DNA from: Dehalococcoidia bacterium
GTDB lineage: Bacteria; Chloroflexota; Dehalococcoidia; Lucifugimonadales; Lucifugimonadaceae
Reading direction: 5' to 3'
Assembly (NCBI GenBank): GCA_965226685.1
Contig: CBDDDP010000004.1
Location: 1,050,714 to 1,114,713 of the forward strand
Length of the DNA stretch: 64,000 bases
This document shows, piece after piece, positions 5,143 through 29,007 of the stretch. The notes under the pieces were generated by a model that was not told where the DNA came from, ran no database searches, and worked only from the letters and a program-made list of their open reading frames with translations. The translations under genes and the position numbers were made by a program. Every line of letters begins with the position of its first letter. The stretch's first letter is position 1.

Positions 5143-5645
5143 GTCGCAACCTCACGATCGTTTTCTTAGCCGTCGTTGCTTTGCAGATGATTGGTTTGGT
5201 GACGTTCGCCGCGGTTAAGCAGTATGTCGCTGCGACCGGAACTGAAGTGGTTTTGCAAGGGGCGCCGGTGGATCCTCGGTCTTTGATGCAAGGCGACTAC
5301 GCGATTCTTGAGTATGAGATTGCGAGCATACCTGAGGAATTGATGGCCGATTTCGCCTCTGGTGACGACGTGATCGTGGTGTTGGTGAACCGTGGGTCGG
5401 TCTGGGAGGGATCCCGGTATTTGACCAATGACCTCTCGCCCAAGCGAAATGACCAAGTCTTCATTCGTGGCGAGATGCAGTCGAACGGGAGGATCGATTT
5501 TGGGATTGGGACGTATTTCGTGCCGGAGGGTACTGGGCAGGAGATTGAGCGGGCGCGGGATTTGAAGATTCGGGTTTCGGTAAATGAGGACGGGGATGCG
5601 ACGGTTTTGGGTGTGATTGTGGATGGCGAGGATTTTGATCGTTGA
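5139..5645 (+). CDS. GDYXXLXY domain-containing membrane-anchored protein
   Basis: 168 aa: an N-terminal TM helix (IVFLAVVALQMIGLVTFAAV) followed by the literal signature MQGDYAILEY. Confidence 0.8.
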   Translation: MSRNLTIVFLAVVALQMIGLVTFAAVKQYVAATGTEVVLQGAPVDPRSLMQGDYAILEYEIASIPEELMADFASGDDVIVVLVNRGSVWEGSRYLTNDLSPKRNDQVFIRGEMQSNGRIDFGIGTYFVPEGTGQEIERARDLKIRVSVNEDGDATVLGVIVDGEDFDR

Positions 5646-5704
5646 TGTTATAGCGACAATCGGAGGAGTCAGTTTTCATAGCTTCATCTTCGCCAATTGG
5701 TCGA

Positions 5705-6271
5705 TTGAAGGGTGTTGTGGTTGCAATAGCCAGCATGGTCGTTGCGGTTGTTGCGGTTTTGTTCATAGTTACTTTGTTTGCCGGCAAGCTTCCGGACGCA
5801 TTGGAGTCGCTTCGAGGTCCGACGGTTTTTGTGCGGGAATTTCCGAGGGAGTGTAACGTCCACTTGGGGGATTGGGTATTGGGGGATTGGGTAAAGGAGT
5901 ACGGTCGCCGCGATGGTGGGGTCGTTTGGCTCGGTACACAATCCGACATGAACGCTTGCGCTGAGAAGTTCTTTCCGGGATCTTCCAAATTCAGAGACAA
6001 TCCGTTAAGGATGATGGACATCCGGATACCGCTTAGGTCGGCGGATGAGGAAGCGCCGGTGATCACCCTCGAGGTCTGTGACCCGTTCTATGCGGATGCT
6101 ATGGTGTTTGATGAATCCACTTCGGAATGGGTGTTGGTATTCGAAGGCGACGCGGATGACATGAGGACGTGTAGCGATTCGAGCCGTAATCCGACTATCA
6201 CAAAGTTGAAGATTCGAGGCAGGTTGGTAGATCACCCGTTCAGGTTCGTCACGGCTACACCGACGCCTTGA
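5705..6271 (+). CDS. hypothetical membrane-anchored/secreted protein
   Basis: 188-aa ORF (TTG start) with an N-terminal hydrophobic helix VVVAIASMVVAVVAVLFIVTLFAG. Contains 4 Cys. No family recognised. Confidence 0.4.
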   Translation: MKGVVVAIASMVVAVVAVLFIVTLFAGKLPDALESLRGPTVFVREFPRECNVHLGDWVLGDWVKEYGRRDGGVVWLGTQSDMNACAEKFFPGSSKFRDNPLRMMDIRIPLRSADEEAPVITLEVCDPFYADAMVFDESTSEWVLVFEGDADDMRTCSDSSRNPTITKLKIRGRLVDHPFRFVTATPTP

Positions 6272-6334
6272 CTGTGGAGGCGGAAATGCACAGATAATAT
6301 GGGAGGAGATTGGCGCGAAAGGAAGGTGTTAGCG

Positions 6335-6451
6335 ATGGATCAATCTAAGTTGGCGCAAGTAATACGACTGGTGGGAGTAATGATTGCGCTCGCCGTCACG
6401 TTGGGTTTTATTGTCATCATTCTTGCGGTTTTCGCTCTCGCTGGTGGGTGA
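6335..6451 (+). CDS. putative 38-aa single-pass membrane peptide
   Basis: Hand-found and below the ORF-track cutoff. ATG at 6335 is preceded by GGAAGGTG (6321-6328). Translation: MDQSKLAQVIRLVGVMIALAVTLGFIVIILAVFALAGG, stop TGA at 6449-6451. Confidence 0.3.
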   Translation: MDQSKLAQVIRLVGVMIALAVTLGFIVIILAVFALAGG

Positions 6452-6596
6452 TCGGGCTTCGTTGATGGCATCGGTTTCTTGCCGCCGTCGCCTTAATGTC
6501 CATGGCATTGGGTGTCATGTCACCGCGATGCGCGGTTACAATCTACACACGACTTGACGCCTCTGAAAGGGACCGTTTCTGCGGAGGGAACCCACT

Positions 6597-7016
6597 ATGA
6601 CGACTGATGCGCCTGCACGACCTGAGCCGGTATCGCAGCCGGAATCTGACCGCTATTGGGAATGCGCCCGTAATGGGGAGCTTTGGTTGCAGAGGGACAA
6701 GGCGACGGGCGAATATCAGTTCTACCCTAGGGCTTTCAGTTTGGCGACGCCGGGTGGCGACGTTGAGTGGGTGAAGGCGTCGGGGAACGCGACGTTGCAC
6801 ACGTTTGGGATCGTGCACATCCCGCCGCATCCCGGTTTCATGGCCGAGGTGCCGTACATCACGGCGATTGTGGAGTTGGAGGAAGGTCCGAGGATGGCGA
6901 CGAACATCGTGGGTGTGGATCCTGAGCCGGAAAATCTGGAAATTGGGATGGCATTGAAGGTGGTCTTCACGAAGATCAGCGACGACTATACGTTGCCGAA
7001 CTTCACGCCTGCTTGA
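6597..7016 (+). CDS. DUF35 OB-fold protein (thiolase/acyl-CoA-associated), zinc ribbon degenerate
   Basis: 139 aa. GNATLHTFGIVHIPPHPGF...YITAIVELEEGPRMATNIVGVD...GMALKVVF is the DUF35 OB fold. The N-terminal region has a single Cys (YWECARNGELWLQRDKATGEYQFYPR) instead of the CxxC...CxxC knuckle. Confidence 0.8.
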   Translation: MTTDAPARPEPVSQPESDRYWECARNGELWLQRDKATGEYQFYPRAFSLATPGGDVEWVKASGNATLHTFGIVHIPPHPGFMAEVPYITAIVELEEGPRMATNIVGVDPEPENLEIGMALKVVFTKISDDYTLPNFTPA

Positions 7017-7118
7017 TGCCCTTACGGGCGGCCCGTTCTTAAACTCCCATTGGCGGGAGACGGGAATGGATCGAGAAAGAGGGATTAGTGCGCCCGGGTA
7101 TTCGGGGGCATTTCGCGT

Positions 7119-7142
7119 GTTGCACAATTTAGGTATTGTTGC
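7119..7142. promoter_or_regulatory. imperfect AT-centred palindrome upstream of argF (possible ARG-box-like operator)
   Basis: GTTGCACAATTTAGGTATTGTTGC: arms GCACAAT / ATTGTTGC with one extra base, about 40 nt upstream of the argF start. No argR gene in the window. Confidence 0.2.
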
Positions 7143-7182
7143 GCTTCGTTTTTTCCGTGGCGCTTGATCTGAGGACCCCGTG

Positions 7183-8100
7183 ATGAACAGGCACTTTTTG
7201 AGGTTTCGCGACCTACCACCGGCGGAGATATCTCCGTTGCTGTACCGGGCGATCGAGCTCAAGAGCGGTGCTGAGAGTCGAGCGTTGTCGGGGAAGTCGG
7301 TGGCGTTGTTATTCGAGAAGCCTTCGCTGAGGACTAAATTGTCGTTCTGGGTTGGTGCGGAGAAGCTTGGTGCGAAGCCGGTGTACTTTTCGCCGGAGGA
7401 GGTAGGACTTGGTAAGCGCGAGCCGGTTGCTGATGTTGCGAAGGTGATTGCGAGCATGGCGGATATGGCTGTGGTTCGCACGTTCGCACAGGCTACACTG
7501 GATGAGTACGGCGAAAACAGCGATGTTCCGGTGATCAACGCTCTCACCGACGGCGAGCATCCATGTCAGGCGTTGGCCGACGTGATGACGATGTTGGAGA
7601 TACGCGGATATCTGGACGAAGTGCGCGTGGCGTTCATCGGGGATGGGAACAACGTGGCCGCGAGTTTGGCCTACGCTATCGCGGGACTCGGTGGGACGAT
7701 AGTTATCGCATCGCCGTTCGGGTATGAGTTGCAGTATGGAACTCGGGTTGACGCAGCGAATTTCACGTCCGGGTTGGCGAAGATGGTGAGCGTGATACAG
7801 ATGCGCGACCCGATCGAGGCTACGCGGCACGCTGATTTTGTGTACACCGACGTTTGGACTAGCATGGGGCAAGAGGCTGAGACGGCTCAACGGTTGAAGG
7901 ATTTTCAGGGCTACCAGGTGAATCCCGAGCTGATGGCGAAGGCGAAGCCGCAGGCGAGGTTCATGCACGACATGCCGGCACACCCGGGCGAAGAGGTCTC
8001 GGAGGACATGATGTCGCATCCGTCATCGGTCGTGTACCAGCAAGCCGAGAATCGCATGTGGGCGCAGATGGCTCTGATGGAGCACATCGTCGCCAGTTAG
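7183..8100 (+). CDS. argF: ornithine carbamoyltransferase
   Basis: Motifs SLRTKLSF (STRTR-like), HPCQALAD and DVWTSMGQE are present; the HCLP motif reads HDMP. ATG 7183 sits 7 nt after GAGGA (7171-7175); the ORF track starts at GTG 7180. Confidence 0.85.
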   Translation: MNRHFLRFRDLPPAEISPLLYRAIELKSGAESRALSGKSVALLFEKPSLRTKLSFWVGAEKLGAKPVYFSPEEVGLGKREPVADVAKVIASMADMAVVRTFAQATLDEYGENSDVPVINALTDGEHPCQALADVMTMLEIRGYLDEVRVAFIGDGNNVAASLAYAIAGLGGTIVIASPFGYELQYGTRVDAANFTSGLAKMVSVIQMRDPIEATRHADFVYTDVWTSMGQEAETAQRLKDFQGYQVNPELMAKAKPQARFMHDMPAHPGEEVSEDMMSHPSSVVYQQAENRMWAQMALMEHIVAS

Positions 8101-8160
8101 ATTCGCAACGATTGATCTCGTTTAATTTCGGTCGATTGAGCACTTGCAACACCAATCACG

Positions 8161-21492: not shown

Positions 21493-22065
21493 TCAATGCG
21501 CCATTGATGCACTCCGTTCGCGGTCATCGTCGTCCGTCGGCATCTGGGCTGAAGCGCCGAATCCCTTCGGGTGGATGTCTAGGAGTTCGAAACCTTCGCG
21601 GATGAGTTTCGGTGCCAGCAACAACGAACGGTGGCATCGCGTTGCTTCGCCTTCCGAACACATCACAACTAACCGTTTCCCTCTTGCCAATCGGGAAATT
21701 TCTACAATTCCGGCTTGGAAATCAGGTTCTTTTGCCCTCTGTTCGTACCATTCGTCAACGGACGGATGTTCGGAATCCTTTGACCTGTTTGGGCCTCTCG
21801 GCATGCCGCCCAAGGATTCGCCCGCCCACAGATATTCCACGCCGATCCGCGTTAGGTTGCATTCCAACCGATCGCGATTCGACCAAGGCGCGAATCGCGA
21901 TCGGGGATACGACCTGACGTCGACCAGCATTTCGATTTCATACGGGGCAAGCAGATTAGCGAACCGTTCCCAATTGTGATTGCTGTGACCGATCGTGTAG
22001 ATGATCGGAGAGGTCGTGTTCACGCCACGGGAAATCCGTTCGTTGTGCGGTTGAGCAGGTTGCAT
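21493..22065 (-). CDS. DUF488 domain-containing protein
   Basis: 190 aa with IYTIGHSNH...LVDVRSYPRSRFAPW...GVEYLWAGESLGG, the DUF488 pattern. Confidence 0.75.
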   Translation of the reverse strand: MQPAQPHNERISRGVNTTSPIIYTIGHSNHNWERFANLLAPYEIEMLVDVRSYPRSRFAPWSNRDRLECNLTRIGVEYLWAGESLGGMPRGPNRSKDSEHPSVDEWYEQRAKEPDFQAGIVEISRLARGKRLVVMCSEGEATRCHRSLLLAPKLIREGFELLDIHPKGFGASAQMPTDDDDRERSASMAH

Positions 22066-22155
22066 GATTGTAGGTTGTGACGGAGCGTTTTCGAGCGAAG
22101 TACACTCAGTACCTTAGTTACGTATCTCACGCTTCAACGGAGACCCAGCAAACAC

Positions 22156-22800
22156 ATGGAGATTTCTCTCAACGGACAGAACGCTTTTCTGGTGAAGACT
22201 GCCTCTGGCTCGGTGATCTGCGATCCCGCCGACGAGGAAGAAGCGACGTTCGTGCCGTCATCCGCGGCTGACGATACCGTGGTCACTGCGATATTGAAGA
22301 GCAATCCTCGCAAATCCTCCCTTCGCAATCAAGTCGGCGGCAGCGACACGATTTCGCATCCGGGCGAGTACGAGATTGGCGACTTGGGATTGAGGGGCAT
22401 TGCTTTGCCAGCGAACCCGGAGTCGGAATCGAAGAAGACGATTACATCCTTCCGTATCGACACCGAGGGTTTGGCGGTTTACATGTTGGGATTAGCGAAA
22501 TCGTCTCCGGATGCTCGGACCGCGCAACGCATCGGTAGCGTTGATGTGCTGTTGCTGGACGTTGCCAGGTTGCAGATCGATGTCAAGGAGTTGTCCTCGA
22601 TCATCGGAGCGTTGGATCCGTCATACGTTTTGGTGAATGGTCTCGTGGCGGATGGCAACGAACCCAGCGAAAAACTCAAATCGCTACTCGTAGAGACAGG
22701 TAACGATCAAATGAACAACGAGCCGCAGTTGCGCGTCAGCGTGACTAGGAGCTCGTTGCCTGCAGACCGTCAACTCGTGGTCTTGCGTCCTCGGGCGTAG
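22156..22800 (+). CDS. hypothetical protein, possibly a degenerate metallo-beta-lactamase-fold protein
   Basis: The N-terminus MEISLNGQNAFLVKTASGSVICDP resembles the first strands of UPF0173-type MBL-fold hydrolases, but no HxHxDH motif is present. Confidence 0.35.
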   Translation: MEISLNGQNAFLVKTASGSVICDPADEEEATFVPSSAADDTVVTAILKSNPRKSSLRNQVGGSDTISHPGEYEIGDLGLRGIALPANPESESKKTITSFRIDTEGLAVYMLGLAKSSPDARTAQRIGSVDVLLLDVARLQIDVKELSSIIGALDPSYVLVNGLVADGNEPSEKLKSLLVETGNDQMNNEPQLRVSVTRSSLPADRQLVVLRPRA

Positions 22801-22820
22801 CGTTATCGAAGCTCGAAATC

Positions 22821-22859
22821 AAAGCGACCGCCGGGAATTGATCTCGGCGGTCGCTTTTT
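22821..22859. terminator. bidirectional intrinsic terminator
   Basis: AAAGCGACCGCCG-(11 nt)-CGGCGGTCGCTTTTT: a 13-bp perfect stem flanked by A-tract and T-tract, lying between convergent genes ending at 22800 (+) and 22887 (-). Confidence 0.75.
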
Positions 22860-22886
22860 GGTTGCTTGTCAGGCGTTGCAGCTAGC

Positions 22887-23891
22887 TTAAGCCTCTGCGT
22901 TGGACTTTCTTGAGTATTGCCAGGCAGCGATACCTATCAGCAGCAGCACGAGGACGATTGCTAGCGGCAAGGTTGCGTTGAATCCGCCGCCGGTATCTTC
23001 GGGCTCCGGATTGTTGGTCAATGGCGTTGGGATTCCTGTCGGAGGCGATGACGTTGGGGATGGCACCAGATTTGAGGTTAGTGGACTCGATGATGGAGTT
23101 GCGGTCGCGGTTAAGGTTGGTGGGATTGAAGACGGGCTCGGCGTGGCAGTCGGTGCGATTGGAGACGGGCTCGGCATCGCGGTTGAAGTCGGTCGCGGCG
23201 TGGCGGTCGGTGCGATTGGAGACGGACTTGGCGTCGCGGTTGAGGTCGGGGACGGCGTGGCGGTCGGTGCGATTGGAGACGGGCTCGACGTCGCGATTGA
23301 GGTCGGGGACGGTTCGGGCGTGTTCGTAGCCGTTGGGATGGGTGTTGGCGTCGGATCGGGCAAGGACGGAAAATCAAGGTCGAGTTCACGTACGATCCCG
23401 AAGACAAACGTGCACTCGAAACACACCTCTCCTGTGAATTCATTGACGATTGCATAGTAGTTTTTGACACTCGACTTGACTTGACCTTCTAGCCAAAACT
23501 CCACTTCGGAGCCGATCAGATCGAGCTCGTGCGGGGGAGCGACCCCCAAGTTAGCGTACTCGAATGGTTTGTTGGGATCCGCACCTACAGTGACTGGGTA
23601 TGACTCCCACGCGTCGCCGATTCGCGCAGTGATTTCGAATCCTGAGTATGCTGGAGTTTCACCGTTTATCGTCACTCTGCCATTGAAAATGACCGCTTCA
23701 ATAGGGGTTGCCGACACGTTGTTCGGCTGATGTAATTCAGGATCGTTGGAATGGGCGCCAATTGACGTACCGCCGTGGACGACGGTGGTCATGACGACGA
23801 TCAGGACCAACATCGCGAGATTGATGCGCGGACGTCGAAAACGGGTCCGTGGGCAAAATCGATAGGTCGTGTTTGACGGGGTGGTCACCAT
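22887..23891 (-). CDS. Pro/Thr-stalked envelope protein, paralog 1 (one globular module)
   Basis: 334 aa. N-terminal basic segment plus helix (RFRRPRINLAMLVLIVVMTTVV), one ~110-aa module, a PT stalk, and the C-terminal [40 protein letters not shown]. Confidence 0.75.
   Translation of the reverse strand: MVTTPSNTTYRFCPRTRFRRPRINLAMLVLIVVMTTVVHGGTSIGAHSNDPELHQPNNVSATPIEAVIFNGRVTINGETPAYSGFEITARIGDAWESYPVTVGADPNKPFEYANLGVAPPHELDLIGSEVEFWLEGQVKSSVKNYYAIVNEFTGEVCFECTFVFGIVRELDLDFPSLPDPTPTPIPTATNTPEPSPTSIATSSPSPIAPTATPSPTSTATPSPSPIAPTATPRPTSTAMPSPSPIAPTATPSPSSIPPTLTATATPSSSPLTSNLVPSPTSSPPTGIPTPLTNNPEPEDTGGGFNATLPLAIVLVLLLIGIAAWQYSRKSNAEA
23004..23363 (-). repeat. in-frame Pro/Thr/Ser-rich stalk with ~57-bp tandem units
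   Basis: Encodes the unit PSPSPIAPTATP(S/R)PTSTA(T/M) about 2.6 times (about 23136-23285) within a longer PT/S tract. Confidence 0.85.
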
Positions 23892-24041
23892 AGGGCGCGG
23901 CCCGATGCCGGATTGAGTTTCGTGTCAGGCTGATTCCATGCTAGTAGAAACGGTCTGTTGATTACCATGGCTAGTCGTCTCGACGGTCTAAGCAATATCA
24001 GTTCTAGGACTGGTCACTGTTAACCAACGAAATTGTTTACC

Positions 24042-24082
24042 AAAAAGCGACCGCCGGGAGTTCATCTCAGCGGTCGCTTTTT
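24042..24082 (-). terminator. intrinsic terminator (near-copy of the one at 22821-22859)
   Basis: AAAAAGCGACCGC-(15 nt)-GCGGTCGCTTTTT, immediately downstream of the paralog-2 stop. The stem sequence is the same as in the 22821 hairpin. Confidence 0.75.
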
Positions 24083-24109
24083 GGTTGTTTGTCCGGCGTT
24101 GCAGCTAGC

Positions 24110-25525
24110 TTATGCCTCTACGTTGGACTTTCTTGAGTTTTGCCATCCAAAGTAGCCAGCGATACCTATCAGCAGCAATACGAGGATGATTGCTAGCGGC
24201 AAGGTTGCGTTGAATCCGCCGCCGGTATCTTCCGGTTCTGGTGCTACGGTCGGTGGAACCGCGGTTGCAGTAGCCGGTATCGGCGTCGCAGTCGGCGGAA
24301 CCGGAGTTTCGGTCGGCGGAACTGGCGTCTCAGTCGGTGGGATTGGTGTTGCAGTTGGCGGAACTGGCGTCTCAGTCGGCGGGATTGGTGTTGCAGTTGG
24401 CGGAACCGGCGTCTCAGTCGGTGGGATTGGTGTTGCAGTTGGCGGAACCGGCGTAGCCGTGGGTTCCGGCGTTGCAGTCGGTTCCGGCGTAGCCGTGGGC
24501 TCGGGTGTCGCAGTCGGCTCAGGTGTAGCCGTGGGTTCCGGCGTCGCAGTCGGTTCCGGCGTCGCAGTCGGTTCCGGCGTCGCAGTCGGTTCCGGCGTGT
24601 AGGTTGCGGTGGGCTCGGGCGTCGGAGTGGGCGCGAGCGCTGGGAAGAATAGCCGCACGTCAGCTGGTTGACCAGCAGTGAAGATGCCGGGTGTCTCGGC
24701 TTCGAGAGTCTTGTTCGGGTTGGTCGGATCGCCTTTGTCGATCACGAAGAAGCGGATTGGTAAACCATCATCACCGTTGTCCTCGGTCGTGATTCCAAGG
24801 TTGTAGGTTCCTTCAAACACGGTTACGTTGTTGGACCGGAGTCGGGTACCGACCACTGCGTAGATTTGGTAACCGTCAGGGACGAGTCCTGCAGACGTAT
24901 AAGCTTGGCCAGTGAAAAGAGTCACGGTCGGACCAGCGCCAGATTGGCCGCCTGAGGGTACGGGTGTCGGCGCGGTCGCTTCGGGGAACGCAGGGAAATC
25001 GAGTTGTACGGTCCTAAAAATCGGGAGGCCGATCGGCTCGTTTATTAAGATGCTTCCGTCCGGAGCGATGATCGCATAGTAGTTAGAAGTCGTGGCTTCG
25101 ACCGTGCCGCCTAGCAGGAACTTCACTTCGTGGCCGAGCAACTCGGCTGGAGGGCTGACGGTGAGGTCTTCGAAGCCGTTGAGATCAGGTGTACCATCGC
25201 CGAGTGTAACGGGATCCGAGATCCATTCGCCGACCTGCGCGTACAACGTCAAACCCTCCAAGTCGAACGGTGAGCCCGCGACGGTCACTCGACCATCAAA
25301 AATCACGGCGGCGAGTTGCGGGGGTAACTGAGACTGTGCTTGAGCGTCATCGCGTGTGCCGAACATCGTGGCAGCCATCGCGATGGATGTGATCAACAAT
25401 AAACCGAACGTGAATGTCCAAACTCGGGTACTCCCCGCCCGCAATCGGTTCCGGAATCCAACCTTCATGGGGCTGTCGATGGGTCGTTGATTCTCGGTTT
25501 TGTCACGCTCGATTGAGTAGTACAT
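24110..25525 (-). CDS. Pro/Thr-stalked envelope protein, paralog 2 (two globular modules)
   Basis: The ORF is open to GTG 25534. ATG 25525 is preceded by GAGGTGA overlapping the upstream stop. Architecture: signal/anchor [19 protein letters not shown], two modules, (PEPTAT)n and ([14 protein letters not shown])n stalk, and C-terminal [43 protein letters not shown]. Confidence 0.75.
24236..24634 (-). repeat. in-frame tandem repeats: 18-bp (PEPTAT) x ~8 and 42-bp ([14 protein letters not shown]) x ~3
   Basis: Directly visible on the plus strand as ggttccggcgtcgcagtc reiterations (about 24455-24600) and ggcggaacYggcgtctcagtcggYgggattggtgttgcagtt x3 (about 24285-24450). Confidence 0.9.
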
Positions 25526-25535
25526 TCGGCTCACC

Positions 25536-26960
25536 TCACTTTGTCCGATTCAGGACAGATCCATCTTTGGCATCAAGTTCGTGGTCTTCTTTTTTGCGCG
25601 TGGCGGCTATGCGCCATGCGAACACGCTTAGAAGCGCCACGATCCCGAACGGCAACGTGGCTTCGATACTGCCGTTTTGGTTGGGCGTTGCGTTGCAGAA
25701 CCCAAAAAAGCCGCCGTTTTTTGGGGTAGGCGTCTCGGTCTCGTTTCCACCGACTACCGGAACGAATTGCGTCGGCCTCACAATCGTCACCACGGCGCTA
25801 GTCGGCTCTCCGGCGGCTGTCGTCGGACGCGGCGTACGCGTAGGTTCAGGCGTCGGAGTGGCGGTTGGAACGTCGGTTGGCGTCGGCGACGGCACGACGG
25901 TTGGCGCGCTCGTGGGCGTCAGCGTCGGGGTGTTGGTTGGCACCGGGGTAGGGGTATTGGTCGGAGACGGTGTTGACGTCTGCGTCGGGGTCAGTGTCGG
26001 CGTATGCGTCGCGGTTGGAACCGGCGTCGCGGTCTCGGTTGGCGTCGCGGTATCTGTCGGCGTCGGCGTAATCGTTGGCGTATCCGTCGGCGTCGGTGTT
26101 GGCGTCAAAGTGGGCAACAGATCGGGGAAGACCAGCGAGAAGTTCTCGAACTGCTGGCCTCCGACAAATGCTCCTGGAGGCGACAATGCCTCCAAGAAGC
26201 GCGGCGCGCCTGTCGGGTCGTTTCGATCAATGAGATAGAACACCACTGGTGCGTCTCGATATTTCTTGTCTACAACATCCATAGTGAGGAAGTAATCCCC
26301 ACCGAATACTTGGATGTTTGCTGACCGGAAATCTGAGCCGACGACAGCGTAGATTTCTGATCCCTCGGGCAATGGGCCTTTTGGCGTTCTCGCCTTGCCG
26401 GTGAAGAACGCGGGTCTGAGTATTTCGGGAGAAGGCGTGTACGTTGGAGTGACGGTCGGTGTTGCTTCTGGGAGGTTCGGGAAATCCAGATCCACTTGAC
26501 GGAGAATCGGGAACGTCCAAGTGCAGCCGCCACAGATCTGATTAGAAAATTCGTTGATTACGGCATACCAGTTGGCAGTTGTGGAGAGCACTTGGCCATC
26601 CAGCCAAAACTCGATTTGGGATCCGACCAAGTCCAGCTCCTTCTCAGGAGCCACGAGAAGATGGGCGTATTGGGAGGGTCTGTCGGGCAGACTGCCGACC
26701 ACGACGGGCGGCGATTCCCACTTATCACTGATCCGAGCCGTGATCGTAAACCCGGAGTACGCCGGTTGTTCGCCGTTGATAGTCACGTTTCCGTTAAACA
26801 CGATAGCTTGAAGGATTGGAGGGACGATAGCTTGTGCGTGAACGGATCGGCTGGCGCGGTTCTCCAGAGCGATCATTCCGACTGCTAGGAATGCCGACAA
26901 AGTTAAGACGACGCCCCAAACTCTGAGGCGCCTCATGATTGGGCGCGCGGGTACAGGCAT
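25536..26960 (-). CDS. Pro/Thr-stalked envelope protein, paralog 3 (two globular modules)
   Basis: The ORF is open to 27023. ATG 26960 ([32 protein letters not shown]) is preceded by AGGAAG 6 nt upstream. Two modules and a PT stalk, ending [44 protein letters not shown]... The stop lies 1 nt (to GTG 25534) or 10 nt (to ATG 25525) from the paralog-2 start region. Confidence 0.75.
25818..26117 (-). repeat. in-frame Pro/Thr low-complexity stalk
   Basis: Encodes [98 protein letters not shown]. Degenerate short-period repeats. Confidence 0.85.
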
Positions 26961-27003
26961 ACATAGCTTCCTACTGAGGATTGTGCGATTCCGCATAGCT
27001 GAA

Positions 27004-27033
27004 ATGCTACGTTTCCGATGCAAGATTGTTCAA
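27004..27033 (-). promoter_or_regulatory. candidate sigma-70-type promoter for the envelope-protein genes
   Basis: On the minus strand, TTGAAC (27033-27028) - 18 nt - TAGCAT (27009-27004), between the rpsI stop and the paralog-3 start. This is a sequence match only. Confidence 0.3.
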
Positions 27034-27094
27034 TTCCAGCGCGGCGTGTGCATCGAGCAGTCGCGCGGCGTATGGGCGTACCTAAAAGAGGAAT

Positions 27095-27502
27095 TTAACG
27101 TTTGGTGTACTGCGGTGCTTTGCGTGCCCGTTTGAGTCCGTACTTCTTCGATTCGCGCATTCTAGAATCGCGAGTCAAGAGTTTGTAGCTCTTCAGGACA
27201 GGTCTTAACTGCGGGTCGAACGCGATCAGAGCTCGCGCCAACCCGTGTGAAAGTGCGACTGCTTGTCCGTGGGTACCGCCGCCTTGCGTCTTGGCGACGA
27301 CGGAGACCTTGCCGGCTAGTTCGGTAACAGACAACGGCATCAGGGCGTCCGACAACCATTGATCCACGGAGATGGCTTCGTTCAACGGTTTACCGTTGAC
27401 AGTCACGCCACCCGCACGGTTGTAAACGCGGACCCGCGCGATGGACGTCTTCCGTCGGCCAGTGCCGTAGTAGTAGTTGGTGTTCTCGGTTTCGGTAGTC
27501 AA
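27095..27502 (-). CDS. rpsI: 30S ribosomal protein S9
   Basis: 135 aa with GTGRRKTSIARV... and ending ...KAPQYTKR. TTG start with SD GAGGAG 7 nt upstream. Confidence 0.95.
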   Translation of the reverse strand: MTTETENTNYYYGTGRRKTSIARVRVYNRAGGVTVNGKPLNEAISVDQWLSDALMPLSVTELAGKVSVVAKTQGGGTHGQAVALSHGLARALIAFDPQLRPVLKSYKLLTRDSRMRESKKYGLKRARKAPQYTKR

Positions 27503-27694
27503 GTTGCGCTCCTCACGCGGTTATATCACCGCACGGATAGGCTCGCGTTCGCGGATCGTACGAATGGACTATCGGTGAGACTTCCCACGAATCTGTCCGA
27601 CGTTTGCGAGCCCGTATGGTGTTACGAAAGTTGGGGGATGTTCGGATTGATCTCATCGCCTAACTGCCGGGCCAGTTCCCAACCAATCGGTTTA

Positions 27695-28156
27695 TTACTC
27701 GCCTGCTTCTCGCATCTTGGCGCGCTCGGTTCCGATAACTTGCGCTGAGTGGGGGTGCTCTGGGCCAGCGTAGACCTTCAATCGGGTCAACATCTTACGC
27801 CCAAGCTTGTTCTTGGGCAACATGCCTCTGACAGCCAGCTCGATGATCCGCCCGGGAGTGCGCTCCGACATCCGGGAGTACGGTATCTCTTTAAGGTTGC
27901 CGGGATATTGGCTGTGACGTCGGTAAATCTTTTGGTCAGCCTTGCGACCGGTCAATTCGATTTTGGTAGCGTTTACGACGACGACGAAGTCGCCCGATGC
28001 CATGTGAGGGACGTAATCGGCTCGATGCTTTCCCATCAACACCATGGCGATCTCGCTGGCTAGTCGGCCAAGCACTCTGCCATCGGCGTCGAACACGCGC
28101 CACCGGTTTTTCAACTCGGACGCGCTGGGGTTGTAGTGCTTCAATTTGGTTGGCAT
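27695..28156 (-). CDS. rplM: 50S ribosomal protein L13
   Basis: 153 aa with RWRVFDADGRVLGRLASEIA and GMLPKNKLGR. Confidence 0.95.
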   Translation of the reverse strand: MPTKLKHYNPSASELKNRWRVFDADGRVLGRLASEIAMVLMGKHRADYVPHMASGDFVVVVNATKIELTGRKADQKIYRRHSQYPGNLKEIPYSRMSERTPGRIIELAVRGMLPKNKLGRKMLTRLKVYAGPEHPHSAQVIGTERAKMREAGE

Positions 28157-28215
28157 AACATATCGATTCTAATTTGTGAGGGCCCAAGTTTCATCCCCGA
28201 TTTTGCGATCATCGC

Positions 28216-29007
28216 TCAGGCCACATTGGGATTGACCTCCAACGAAGGGAAGGATCTGTATACAACGCGCACCAGCGTCAACCCATGAGGTGGAGCGTTT
28301 TGCGATGCTGAGTCTCGCCTCGGATGATTGATCAACGACACGATCCAGTCTTCGGTTCTTGACGCGTTGCCCACCACGATCAGAGCTGCAACCATGCGTC
28401 GTATTTGTTGACGAACGAACGCGTTTGCCCGGATATCGAACGCGATCCGATTTTCGGAAGTGCGCGTTACCGTTGCAGTTTCCACTTGTCGCACCGTTGA
28501 ACCAGGATTCGTTGTGCTCGCAGCGAAGGATGCGAAGTCGTGAACGCCGATGAGGTGTCGAGCCGCTTCTGCCATCGTCGCAACATCCAAACGCCGGTTT
28601 ACGTGGTATTCGCGCCGTCTATTGATCGGGGAATGCGTCGGACCGTCGTTAATTGCGTAACTGTATTCACGCGCAACGGCGTCGCGTCGTGGATCGAAGT
28701 CGGCTGGGACACGCGTAACGAGCTTTACGCAGACATCGGCTGGTAGATTGCCGTTCATTGCTCTGCGCATTTCTTCGTCTGACATACCCGTCTCTATGTT
28801 GAGCGAGGCGACTTGCCCAAATGCGTGTACTCCGGCGTCGGTGCGACTTGCAAGGCTGATGCGACCGACATCGTTTCCGAAAATCGTCGCGGCTGCGGAT
28901 TCCAATTCGCCTTGTACCGTTCGCGCGTTCAACTGGAACTGGGACCCGCTGAAATCAGCGCCATCGTACTCGACAATCAACGCTATTCGCATTGTGCGTA
29001 GCGTCAC
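28216..29007 (-). CDS. truA: tRNA pseudouridine(38-40) synthase TruA
   Basis: 263 aa with IEYDGADFSGSQFQ, SRTDAGVHAFGQV and GVHDFASF. Confidence 0.9.
   Translation of the reverse strand: MTLRTMRIALIVEYDGADFSGSQFQLNARTVQGELESAAATIFGNDVGRISLASRTDAGVHAFGQVASLNIETGMSDEEMRRAMNGNLPADVCVKLVTRVPADFDPRRDAVAREYSYAINDGPTHSPINRRREYHVNRRLDVATMAEAARHLIGVHDFASFAASTTNPGSTVRQVETATVTRTSENRIAFDIRANAFVRQQIRRMVAALIVVGNASRTEDWIVSLINHPRRDSASQNAPPHGLTLVRVVYRSFPSLEVNPNVA

Follow-up and report, generated by a model that had tools for sequence, protein, structure and literature searches.

How the proteins of a poorly cultured bacterial lineage are held at the cell surface is the question raised by three tandem genes in a 64,000-nucleotide stretch of a Dehalococcoidia genome (contig CBDDDP010000004.1, positions 1,050,714 to 1,114,713; the whole stretch is called the window here). 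Dehalococcoidia and the SAR202 cluster abound in seawater, sponges and soils, but cultured representatives are few; the locus supplies concrete candidate envelope proteins, conserved and placed beside a ribosomal-protein operon. The genes, denoted here as paralogs 1, 2 and 3 (paralog 3 being the first gene of the array), encode exported proteins ending in a short C-terminal cassette, which a first-pass annotation made from the sequence of the window had considered the best candidate in the window for an undescribed surface-display or sorting system. We favor, with a probability of about one half, the reading that the array encodes membrane-tethered, stalked envelope proteins of a SAR202-related member of the Dehalococcoidia, whose anchors derive from a cysteine-type signal and whose fates differ by paralog.

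The three same-strand paralogous open reading frames (ORFs) proposed by the first-pass annotation are real: they lie on the minus strand, with maximal lengths of 334, 474 and 495 residues, and pairwise alignment confirms the paralogy of their products, module 2 being missing from paralog 1. All the motifs quoted in that annotation, including the three C-terminal strings, were located in the translations, and the shared architecture (signal, one or two globular modules, stalk and cassette) was borne out by hydropathy, alignment and repeat analysis. In each protein a hydrophobic segment lies near the N-terminus and another at the very C-terminus, and the order in paralog 3 is signal peptide, module 1, module 2, Pro/Thr (PT) stalk and Cys-type cassette. 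A conserved VHA↓QA site of the signal peptidase I type is found at residues 61-64 of paralog 3, the A-x-A-Q motif recurs in homologs (the paralog 2 site reads AQA↓Q), and from this pattern the signal peptides are probably cleaved at the A-x-A↓Q site. The Pro/Thr/Ser-rich stalks span 110-140 residues (residues 169-301, 296-435 and 293-411 in paralogs 1, 2 and 3, respectively) and consist of tandem repeats that are visible in the DNA itself (periods of 57, 42/84 and 18/36). Frameshifts in these repeats truncate several public gene calls of the family, for instance P0001, P0004, P0007 and P0019.

The tripartite layout, consisting of a short signature, a hydrophobic helix and an Arg/Lys cluster, is present in all three paralogs, and the resemblance to sorting signals pointed out at the outset holds. 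The cassette of paralog 3 contains a cysteine, Cys443 within GFC-NAT, which the first-pass annotation had not weighed. This residue is invariant in 32/32 orthologs, all of which fit the pattern GG-x-G-[FL]-C-[NS]-A-[TS]...G-x-[MIL]-E-A-[TS]-[LMV]-P-helix-W-R, and some 17 further residues, acidic in character and little conserved, come after the basic cluster. The Cys is missing from every one of the 28 paralog 2 orthologs, nearly all of which read E[ED][TS]GGGFNAT[LVI]PLAI...GWxY[ST]R; FNAT is found in 28/28, and a few have GGF or GEF instead of GGGF. The third array position is more variable, with cassettes such as DGGMNVAIPIAVV, DRGWNVAIP, DGGMNVAIP and, lacking the Pro, KRANATTGLTVIV. The cassettes of paralogs 1-3 all contain the GG pair, which gives way to RG in part of the third-position orthologs, and when nine cassettes are aligned only a P, an L and a W are invariant. 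GGF, NAT and ATLP, proposed as the conserved elements of the cassette, are thus kept only unevenly among the third-position paralogs (DGGMNVAIPIAVV and KRANATTGLTVIV).

A second relevant property of the cassette is its conservation. In paralog 2 it shows pairwise identities of 0.83-0.88 among the 28 orthologs, the highest of any non-repeat block, compared with 0.55-0.73 for the globular modules and 0.29 for the core of the N-terminal signal peptide. The paralog 3 cassette reaches 0.64-0.72, about equal to the modules. Since a purely hydrophobic anchor would be less constrained, something reads the paralog 2 cassette, be it an enzyme, a partner helix or both.

The tails were compared with the existing sorting-signal models, as the first-pass annotation had advised, and none attained the threshold. 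Pfam and NCBIfam searches with the whole window proteins and with their last 50-70 residues yielded nothing above threshold, the sub-threshold noise being limited to TonB (on the Pro-rich region), DUF3309 and LPXTG_anchor. The best tail match was that of TIGR01167 (LPXTG_anchor) to paralog 2, at 15.1 bits against a cutoff of 15.9, whereas PEP-CTERM, PGF-CTERM, GlyGly-CTERM and the other sorting-signal models did not match the window tails even at E<=10. The near-threshold hit, together with a PT-rich stalk, a helix and a basic tail in the classic layout, would fit sortase substrates with a variant of LPXTG, attached covalently to a wall that the stalk would span. However, the match covers profile positions 5-33, that is, the helix and the basic tail, and misses the LPXTG motif itself; the cassettes share no pentapeptide of the LPXTG or LAXTG kind; and no sortase signature was found in the flanks. 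The acceptor would also be missing, as cultured SAR202 relatives are monoderm, encode no peptidoglycan synthesis and bear an S-layer-like coat (PMC10444878). Other members of the Dehalococcoidia, Tepidiforma for example, possess peptidoglycan as well as an S-layer (PMC10284905). By analogy with the cultured SAR202, the host of the window is probably a monoderm without a peptidoglycan wall. If it is wall-less, sortase attachment would lack its acceptor, and anchoring to the membrane by a helix or a lipid would be expected, as in archaea. A sortase mechanism is, consequently, very improbable.

Other known systems were also discarded. For exosortase, there is no PEP-CTERM match, TGGGFNAT separates PEPED from the helix, and PEPED is absent from paralog 3; for archaeosortase, there is neither a PGF motif nor a PGF-CTERM match. 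GlyGly-CTERM (TIGR03501) remained unmatched at E<=10 despite the GG of paralogs 1-3, and N-A-T cannot be a universal sequon, as it is missing in several orthologs and paralogs.

The origin of the cassette can be traced in the wider family. An exhaustive HMMER search with the module 1 profile against 1.84 billion cluster representatives yielded a small family of 166 proteins, and in many of its distant members a signal peptide is followed by two modules and an extended PT stalk. Of 165 representatives, about 65 terminate with a canonical tripartite Cys cassette: (E/S)xGGG(F)C, a loop of 10-15 residues, and G-x-(A/G)-N-(L/M)LLL-x-(A/G)-P-LGLI-x-G-x-RR-x-RR. Across 47 aligned canonical tails, the Cys (47/47) and the Pro never vary, and conservation exceeds 90% for a Gly and for the Asn; the Cys stays constant over very deep divergence, while the adjoining loop is free to vary. 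The tail of one member, P0069, scores 24 bits against the MYXO-CTERM model TIGR03901.2 (cutoff 20), six of 47 other canonical tails give weak sub-threshold matches to it, and no other model matched consistently. The canonical cassette is thus related in kind to known signals and is captured by no model of NCBIfam release 20, so that a C-terminal element defined in sequence lies outside the reach of current annotation. MYXO-, JDVT-, Synerg- and CGP-CTERM make up the known class of invariant-Cys tripartite signals (Haft, 10.1101/2023.06.07.544157), and Chloroflexi do not figure in that paper.

The relationship between the canonical cassette and those of the window was assessed by profile comparison. 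Hhalign matches the paralog 3-type to the canonical cassette with a probability of 76% and E 2e-5, over 11 columns around GG-x-C. Because significance is confined to GG-x-C, the common descent of the cassettes rests on the existence of intermediate forms (P0045, P0046, P0058, P0064, P0066 and P0069), on the homologous N-terminal modules and on positional orthology. In this regard, the canonical-cassette genes of two distant contigs (L046 and L055) have an opposite-strand Lactamase_B_3 gene and then hrcA downstream, and that of L047 keeps the Lactamase_B_3 neighbor, the contig ending there. A clue is provided by the most divergent array examined (L033, whose module 1 is 67% identical), in which the second gene retains a Cys form, GGGLCSAPVTDDGSAEATLPLALI, intermediate between the types of paralogs 3 and 2. 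In view of this form, the paralog 1/2 cassette is most simply explained by the deletion of an 11-residue Cys loop and an E-to-N change. The canonical type itself does not occur in the clade of the window (about 0.9 Mb, comprising the window and the collected loci). Rather than an isolated invention, the cassette is a derived form of the invariant-Cys cassette typical of a wider family, one relative in which passes the MYXO-CTERM model. The interpretation that fits best is that the tail derives, within this lineage, from a signal of the MYXO-CTERM class, having lost the Cys in two of the three paralogs, and is not a wholly new grammar.

This genealogy bears on the possibility, in the spirit of the first-pass annotation, that GGF, N-A-T and ATLP-helix-R/K form a new, self-standing signal for an enzyme of another kind, for example a rhombosortase-like protease of the rhomboid type that would recognize GG-x-helix, coupled to N-glycosylation at NAT. 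The near-invariance of the paralog 2 motif, FNAT above all, would agree with it, as would the succession of GG, short spacer, helix and basic tail, which is the grammar of GlyGly-CTERM, the recurrence of N-x-T directly before the helix in three cassette subtypes and the failure of existing models to match. Nevertheless, GG and NAT are lost in third-position paralogs (DRGWNVAIP, DGGMNVAIP), GlyGly-CTERM gives no match even with the permissive cutoff mentioned above, no other cargo was found in about 0.9 Mb of flanks, and deletion from a Cys cassette is the simpler account. Moreover, an oligosaccharyltransferase would have difficulty in reaching a sequon that lies two residues from the helix. 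A signal of this kind is, on balance, improbable.

According to the reading that we favor, each protein would be exported through the Sec pathway by its N-terminal signal peptide, probably cut at A-x-A↓Q, and would present one or two transthyretin/CnaB-like β-sandwich modules on a Pro/Thr stalk of 100-140 residues, probably glycosylated, with its C-terminal end holding it at the membrane. The window cassettes would descend from an invariant-Cys tripartite signal made of GGG-C, a loop of about 10-15 residues, a Pro-containing helix and an Arg cluster. In the MYXO-CTERM system, the intramembrane protease MrtX, of the CPBP family, removes the helix only if the Cys is there, and the Cys itself has been proposed, without proof so far, to be lipidated (PMC11980579). 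By analogy, the Cys of paralog 3 would be lipidated and its helix removed by an intramembrane protease encoded elsewhere in the genome. Paralogs 1 and 2, having lost the Cys loop (11 residues), would most likely remain anchored by their uncleaved helix, whose conservation is unusual.

Several observations weigh against this proposal. The hhalign match is restricted to the 11 columns mentioned, with the helices out of register, and the lineages with the canonical cassette are distant, the HrcA of L046 being only 32% identical to that of the window. No window tail reaches any sorting-signal model, and TIGR03901.2 and the JDVT-, Synerg- and CGP-CTERM models give no match to these tails at E<=10. 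No CPBP, rhomboid, sortase or exosortase gene was found in the array flanks of any genome, and no unrelated cargo in the approximately 0.9 Mb of window and loci, where the window-type cassette occurs on array paralogs only. The acidic extension of paralog 3 past its basic cluster is atypical of processed tripartite signals. Paralogs 1 and 2 lack the Cys needed for cleavage by a myxosortase, yet they have the best-conserved cassette, for which the model gives no explanation. Finally, the absence of peptidoglycan is borrowed from cultured SAR202 and not from this genome.

Some of these facts would be accounted for if all three were plain type-I tail-anchored proteins that undergo no processing, the constraint on their juxtamembrane segment and helix (GGG, N, a Pro kink, W/Y and R/K) reflecting packing between helices, hetero-oligomerization of the paralogs or contact with a partner, and the Cys of paralog 3 taking part in a disulfide, for instance in a covalent dimer. 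The fact that, over some 0.9 Mb of flanks, the cassette occurs in a single paralog family, the absence of an enzyme gene nearby and the extra residues of paralog 3 are what such anchors would lead one to expect; the Cys-less paralogs 1 and 2 carry the most conserved helix, which fits a structural role, and a C-x-x-C pair within module 1 of paralogs 1 and 3 makes extracytoplasmic disulfides plausible. What speaks against plain anchors comes from the distant members: their canonical cassette has exactly the tripartite grammar of a processed signal, in which the Cys never varies and the protein ends in an Arg cluster, one of them passes the MYXO-CTERM model, and the Cys persists over very deep divergence while the loop varies. 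We regard this alternative as a serious one that nevertheless falls short of an even chance. Single-cargo families are not foreign to the invariant-Cys class, as one-cargo systems such as JDVT exist within it.

A more specific version of the cysteine-derived reading would take GGG-C...N-LLLxAPLGL...RRxRR as a fifth, unmodelled invariant-Cys signal of probable Chloroflexota-related bacteria, probably wall-less monoderms, in which it would fix the stalk or anchor subunit of a two-component surface layer to the cytoplasmic membrane by a lipid, with the help of a cognate intramembrane protease whose gene lies elsewhere; paralog 3 would still be processed, and paralogs 1 and 2 would have reverted to helix anchors. 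We advance this version tentatively and with some doubt. If it were true, the clade of the window would show the system in evolutionary transition, with a rigid recognition or packing motif kept.

The search for an enzyme and for further cargo was extended beyond the array. In line with the first-pass annotation, no sorting enzyme was recognized among the window ORFs, eight of which were compared with Pfam and the rest inspected by translation and motif scan. A motif scan for EExxxR...HxxxN membrane proteins found none within about 10 kb of some 45 loci; a match to the CPBP regular expression in L046 turned out to be a false positive in an MTHFR gene. One rhomboid gene, probably irrelevant, lies 8 kb from a dispersed copy of the module in L035. 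With regard to cargo, profile A3 retrieved only fragments of the same family from a collection of 5.8 billion proteins, the candidate list being saturated, and is thus uninformative about other cargo; profile A4 retrieved nothing there, known members included, and is likewise uninformative rather than negative. When JGI metagenome DNA was scanned with a back-translation of the paralog 3 cassette, the four matches were due to chance, with no open frame containing the motif, and as the scan missed the orthologs too, it is equally uninformative. Of the sorting system initially envisaged, then, an unmodelled, signal-like cassette stands, and neither diverse cargo nor a co-varying enzyme was found in the flanks.

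The distribution of the array is narrow and its position constant. The globular part of paralog 3, used as query in a word-indexed search, returned only 19 proteins, all without Pfam domains, and a scan of GTDB species representatives returned 38 loci, all but one of them from 'Dehalococcoidia bacterium' metagenome-assembled genomes (MAGs), a 'SAR202 cluster bacterium' and sponge-associated Chloroflexi; the exception, L044, is a weak partial match (E 1e-4) in an Aestuariivirgaceae MAG. One of these loci (L007, OZ245044.1) is 94-96% identical to the window at the DNA level. The array lies directly downstream of truA-rplM-rpsI, at the end of the bacterial ribosomal-protein supercluster, and in about 30 species-level Dehalococcoidia genomes it recurs after rpsI with the same cassettes, a recurrence far beyond chance. 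The order there is rpsI, the paralog 3 ortholog, the paralog 2 ortholog and a variable third or fourth paralog, followed by an opposite-strand Lactamase_B_3-like gene, DUF488, hrcA, dnaJ and prmA; the third position differs between genomes in length, module number and cassette. In one genome (L021, OY759581.1), the array contains three paralog 2-type genes with nearly identical cassettes, two of which have a different N-terminal part (...IYVMDVDGGVEVRVPTATP...), indicating recent duplication and domain shuffling.

Some genomes also contain dispersed single-module copies of about 200-265 residues with a short linker and without a PT stalk (in L001, L002, L035 and L037-L043). These copies end differently, in DI[SG]KL[RG]VGG.A.P...helix...KR or in a GG-containing end, ...LRVGGVAMPLKFATIAMLAGLAFLTLGS.TLKRWT, have ABM and 2-hydroxyacid-dehydrogenase genes as neighbors, and lie apart from the ribosomal array.

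In the distant lineages, the cassette protein has a partner. On six independent contigs (L046, L047, L049, L054, L055 and L056), a gene for a large protein immediately precedes, on the same strand, that of the canonical-cassette protein. The large proteins have 700-1084 residues in five contigs (in L049 the gene call is split into two ORFs, of 377 and 566 residues), a signal peptide wherever the N-terminus lies on the contig, and no C-terminal anchor. They are very acidic, e.g., 152 acidic versus 39 basic residues, have no Pfam domain except for a weak Big_5 match in one, and are mutually homologous (E 1e-16 to 1e-87 in all but one pairing); a PDB sequence search with that of L046 gave nothing significant. 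In L046, L054 and L055 the genes for the large protein and the cassette protein follow pyrG and rho, and this order extends in these lineages to an opposite-strand Lactamase_B_3 gene, hrcA and ffh. The pair looks like a candidate two-component surface layer, in which an acidic, secreted outer protein would be combined with a membrane-anchored stalk protein. No large acidic partner is adjacent to the array in the clade of the window. Three kilobases upstream of the L046 pair there is a gene for a 704-residue membrane protein of the Wzy_C family (PF04932, O-antigen-ligase/PglL-like); a role for it as the O-oligosaccharyltransferase of the Pro/Thr stalks is speculative.

The globular module of about 110 residues was also unclassified in our hands, with no Pfam match and no significant PDB match by sequence, the module profile included, or by fold. 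F-P at its end, as described by the first-pass annotation, is invariant in module 1 (profile A2), while at the end of module 2 (profile A5) the F is invariant and the P nearly so. AlphaFold models computed from the family alignments, a structural check that had also been suggested there, are confident all-β sandwiches (predicted local distance difference test, pLDDT, of 83 for module 1 and 92 for module 2). In Foldseek comparisons against the PDB, the best E values were only 0.018 and 0.026 (query-normalized TM-scores, TMq, of 0.34-0.50), which are not significant; with that limit, the classes matched were consistent, with the usher C-terminal domain, the transthyretin-like domain of carboxypeptidase D and CnaB pilins at the top, and adhesin domains of the CnaB type and the intradiol dioxygenase sandwich core also represented. 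From these models, the modules would be generic extracellular sandwich domains, with no catalytic function suggested. As the module 1 and module 2 profiles each match both module positions in distant members, the two modules are divergent copies of one superfamily. Two further members, P0088 and P0162, carry the same β-sandwich modules with dockerin-like repeats (DLNSDGVVDFRDLAMLG...) in place of the helix cassette, so that the module is also displayed through another mode of attachment.

As for expression, the position next to rpsI suggests that the array may be co-transcribed with this gene and its products highly expressed. A promoter and terminator scan of 22000-28300 gave nothing exceeding the shuffled expectation, and the interval from rpsI to paralog 3 showed no terminator-like site. 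The start codon of paralog 3 is probably ATG 26996 or the internal ATG 26960, the latter being preceded by AGGAAG, a good Shine-Dalgarno-like sequence. Among the 32 orthologs, the roughly 20 codons located 5' of the hydrophobic core (26960-27023) have pairwise identities of 0.56-0.71, higher than the 0.44-0.51 of the signal-peptide core. Because these upstream codons are more conserved than the core and AGGAAG precedes ATG 26960, the stretch may be a 5' leader or regulatory element rather than coding sequence.

Regarding the remaining surroundings, the Lactamase_B_3-like gene, of the metallo-β-lactamase fold, is syntenic in L003, L004, L006, L046, L047 and L055, and is convergent to the last surface-protein gene even where HrcA is as divergent as in L046. 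In the window protein an HxHxDH motif is not evident. Comparison of the whole window with Rfam yielded neither rRNA nor any other RNA family, and was also empty over a stretch of about 3 kb that contains only implausible ORFs. The coordinates of all these features are collected in Table 1.

Table 1. Location of the array, its parts and the neighboring or related features (window positions unless a contig is given).
Feature	Position	Strand	Basis or remark
Paralog 3	25536-27023	minus	first gene of array; maximal ORF 495 aa
Paralog 2	24110-25534	minus	maximal ORF 474 aa
Paralog 1	22887-23891	minus	334 aa
Paralog 3 N-terminal hydrophobic segment, ~residues 35-54	26862-26921	minus	hydropathy
Paralog 3 module 1, residues 73-189, ending DLDFPNLP	26457-26807	minus	HMM match E 1e-62
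Paralog 3 module 2, residues ~198-305, ending LVFPDLLPT	26109-26432	minus	predicted model pLDDT 92
Paralog 3 Pro/Thr stalk	25749-26108	minus	composition and tandem repeats
Paralog 3 cassette, begins GGFFGF-C(443)	25587-25718	minus	Cys codon 25695-25697
Paralog 2 module 1	24974-25309	minus	
Paralog 2 module 2	24626-24937	minus	
Paralog 2 PT stalk	24245-24625	minus	composition and tandem repeats
Paralog 2 cassette	24113-24241	minus	without Cys
Paralog 1 single module 1	23346-23696	minus	
Paralog 1 PT stalk	23013-23345	minus	composition
Paralog 1 cassette	22890-23009	minus	paralog 2 type, without Cys
rplM	27695-28156	minus	upstream of array; Pfam label taken from syntenic loci
rpsI	27095-27502	minus	immediately upstream of paralog 3; Pfam label from syntenic loci
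Lactamase_B_3-like gene	22156-22800	plus	convergent to array; Pfam E 2.7e-13
Stretch with implausible ORFs only	5166-8160		~3 kb; Rfam empty
Large acidic proteins	L046:7232-9904, L047:319-3258, L049:420-3703, L054:6666-9920, L055:6796-9912, L056:3-2144		
Lactamase_B_3-like gene copies	L046:11208-11843, L047:4402-4881, L055:11238-11873		
Wzy_C membrane protein	L046:4344-6458	minus	PF04932
Dispersed single-module copies	L001:10001-10798, L002:10001-10645		
Three paralog 2-type genes	L021:11329-16686		OY759581.1

Among known systems, the Gram-positive LPXTG proteins share with the array the signal peptide, the CnaB/transthyretin-like sandwiches, the Pro/Thr-rich spacer, the helix and the basic tail, and differ from it in that the array proteins lack an LPXTG motif, their flanks contain no sortase gene and an acceptor of peptidoglycan is probably missing. 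The haloarchaeal S-layer glycoprotein has a Thr-rich, O-glycosylated stalk and a PGF-CTERM, and receives a lipid anchor after cleavage by archaeosortase A. The likeness lies in a wall-less cell, a coat protein held to the cytoplasmic membrane via a C-terminal signal, and a membrane-proximal Thr-rich stalk with N-x-T sequons; in contrast, the present proteins belong to a bacterial host, have one or two small sandwich domains and no PGF motif or PGF-CTERM match, and their glycosylation and lipidation are predicted only. The SlaA/SlaB pair of the Sulfolobales, in which a large outer lattice protein is combined with a membrane-anchored stalk protein, recalls the acidic protein and cassette protein of the distant lineages, and SlaB resembles the latter in combining β-sandwich domains, a stalk and a C-terminal helix. 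However, the two are not similar in sequence, nor significantly so in fold (SlaB ranks 47 in Foldseek, E 0.15), the stalk of SlaB is a coiled coil and not a PT repeat, and the large partner is not adjacent in the clade of the window.

The closest relative in kind is the MYXO-CTERM class. The differences are clear: the present hosts belong to another phylum and are probably monoderm, with no outer membrane or type II secretion step to serve; the loop between Cys and helix is longer, with a near-invariant Asn at the helix entry; the window tails match none of the models and two of the three window paralogs lack the Cys; and a single cargo family is seen here, with flanks devoid of a CPBP enzyme. 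The likeness, in turn, extends to a Gly before the invariant Cys, the hydrophobic helix and the C-terminal Arg/Lys cluster, to the location of the signal on Sec-exported surface proteins behind a disordered linker, and to the family member that passes TIGR03901.2, while the invariant Pro inside a Leu-rich helix of the canonical cassette is shared with Synerg-CTERM. The array offers a natural contrast between Cys-containing and Cys-less forms of one cassette, which bears on lipidation and cleavage of the MYXO-CTERM type outside diderm bacteria.

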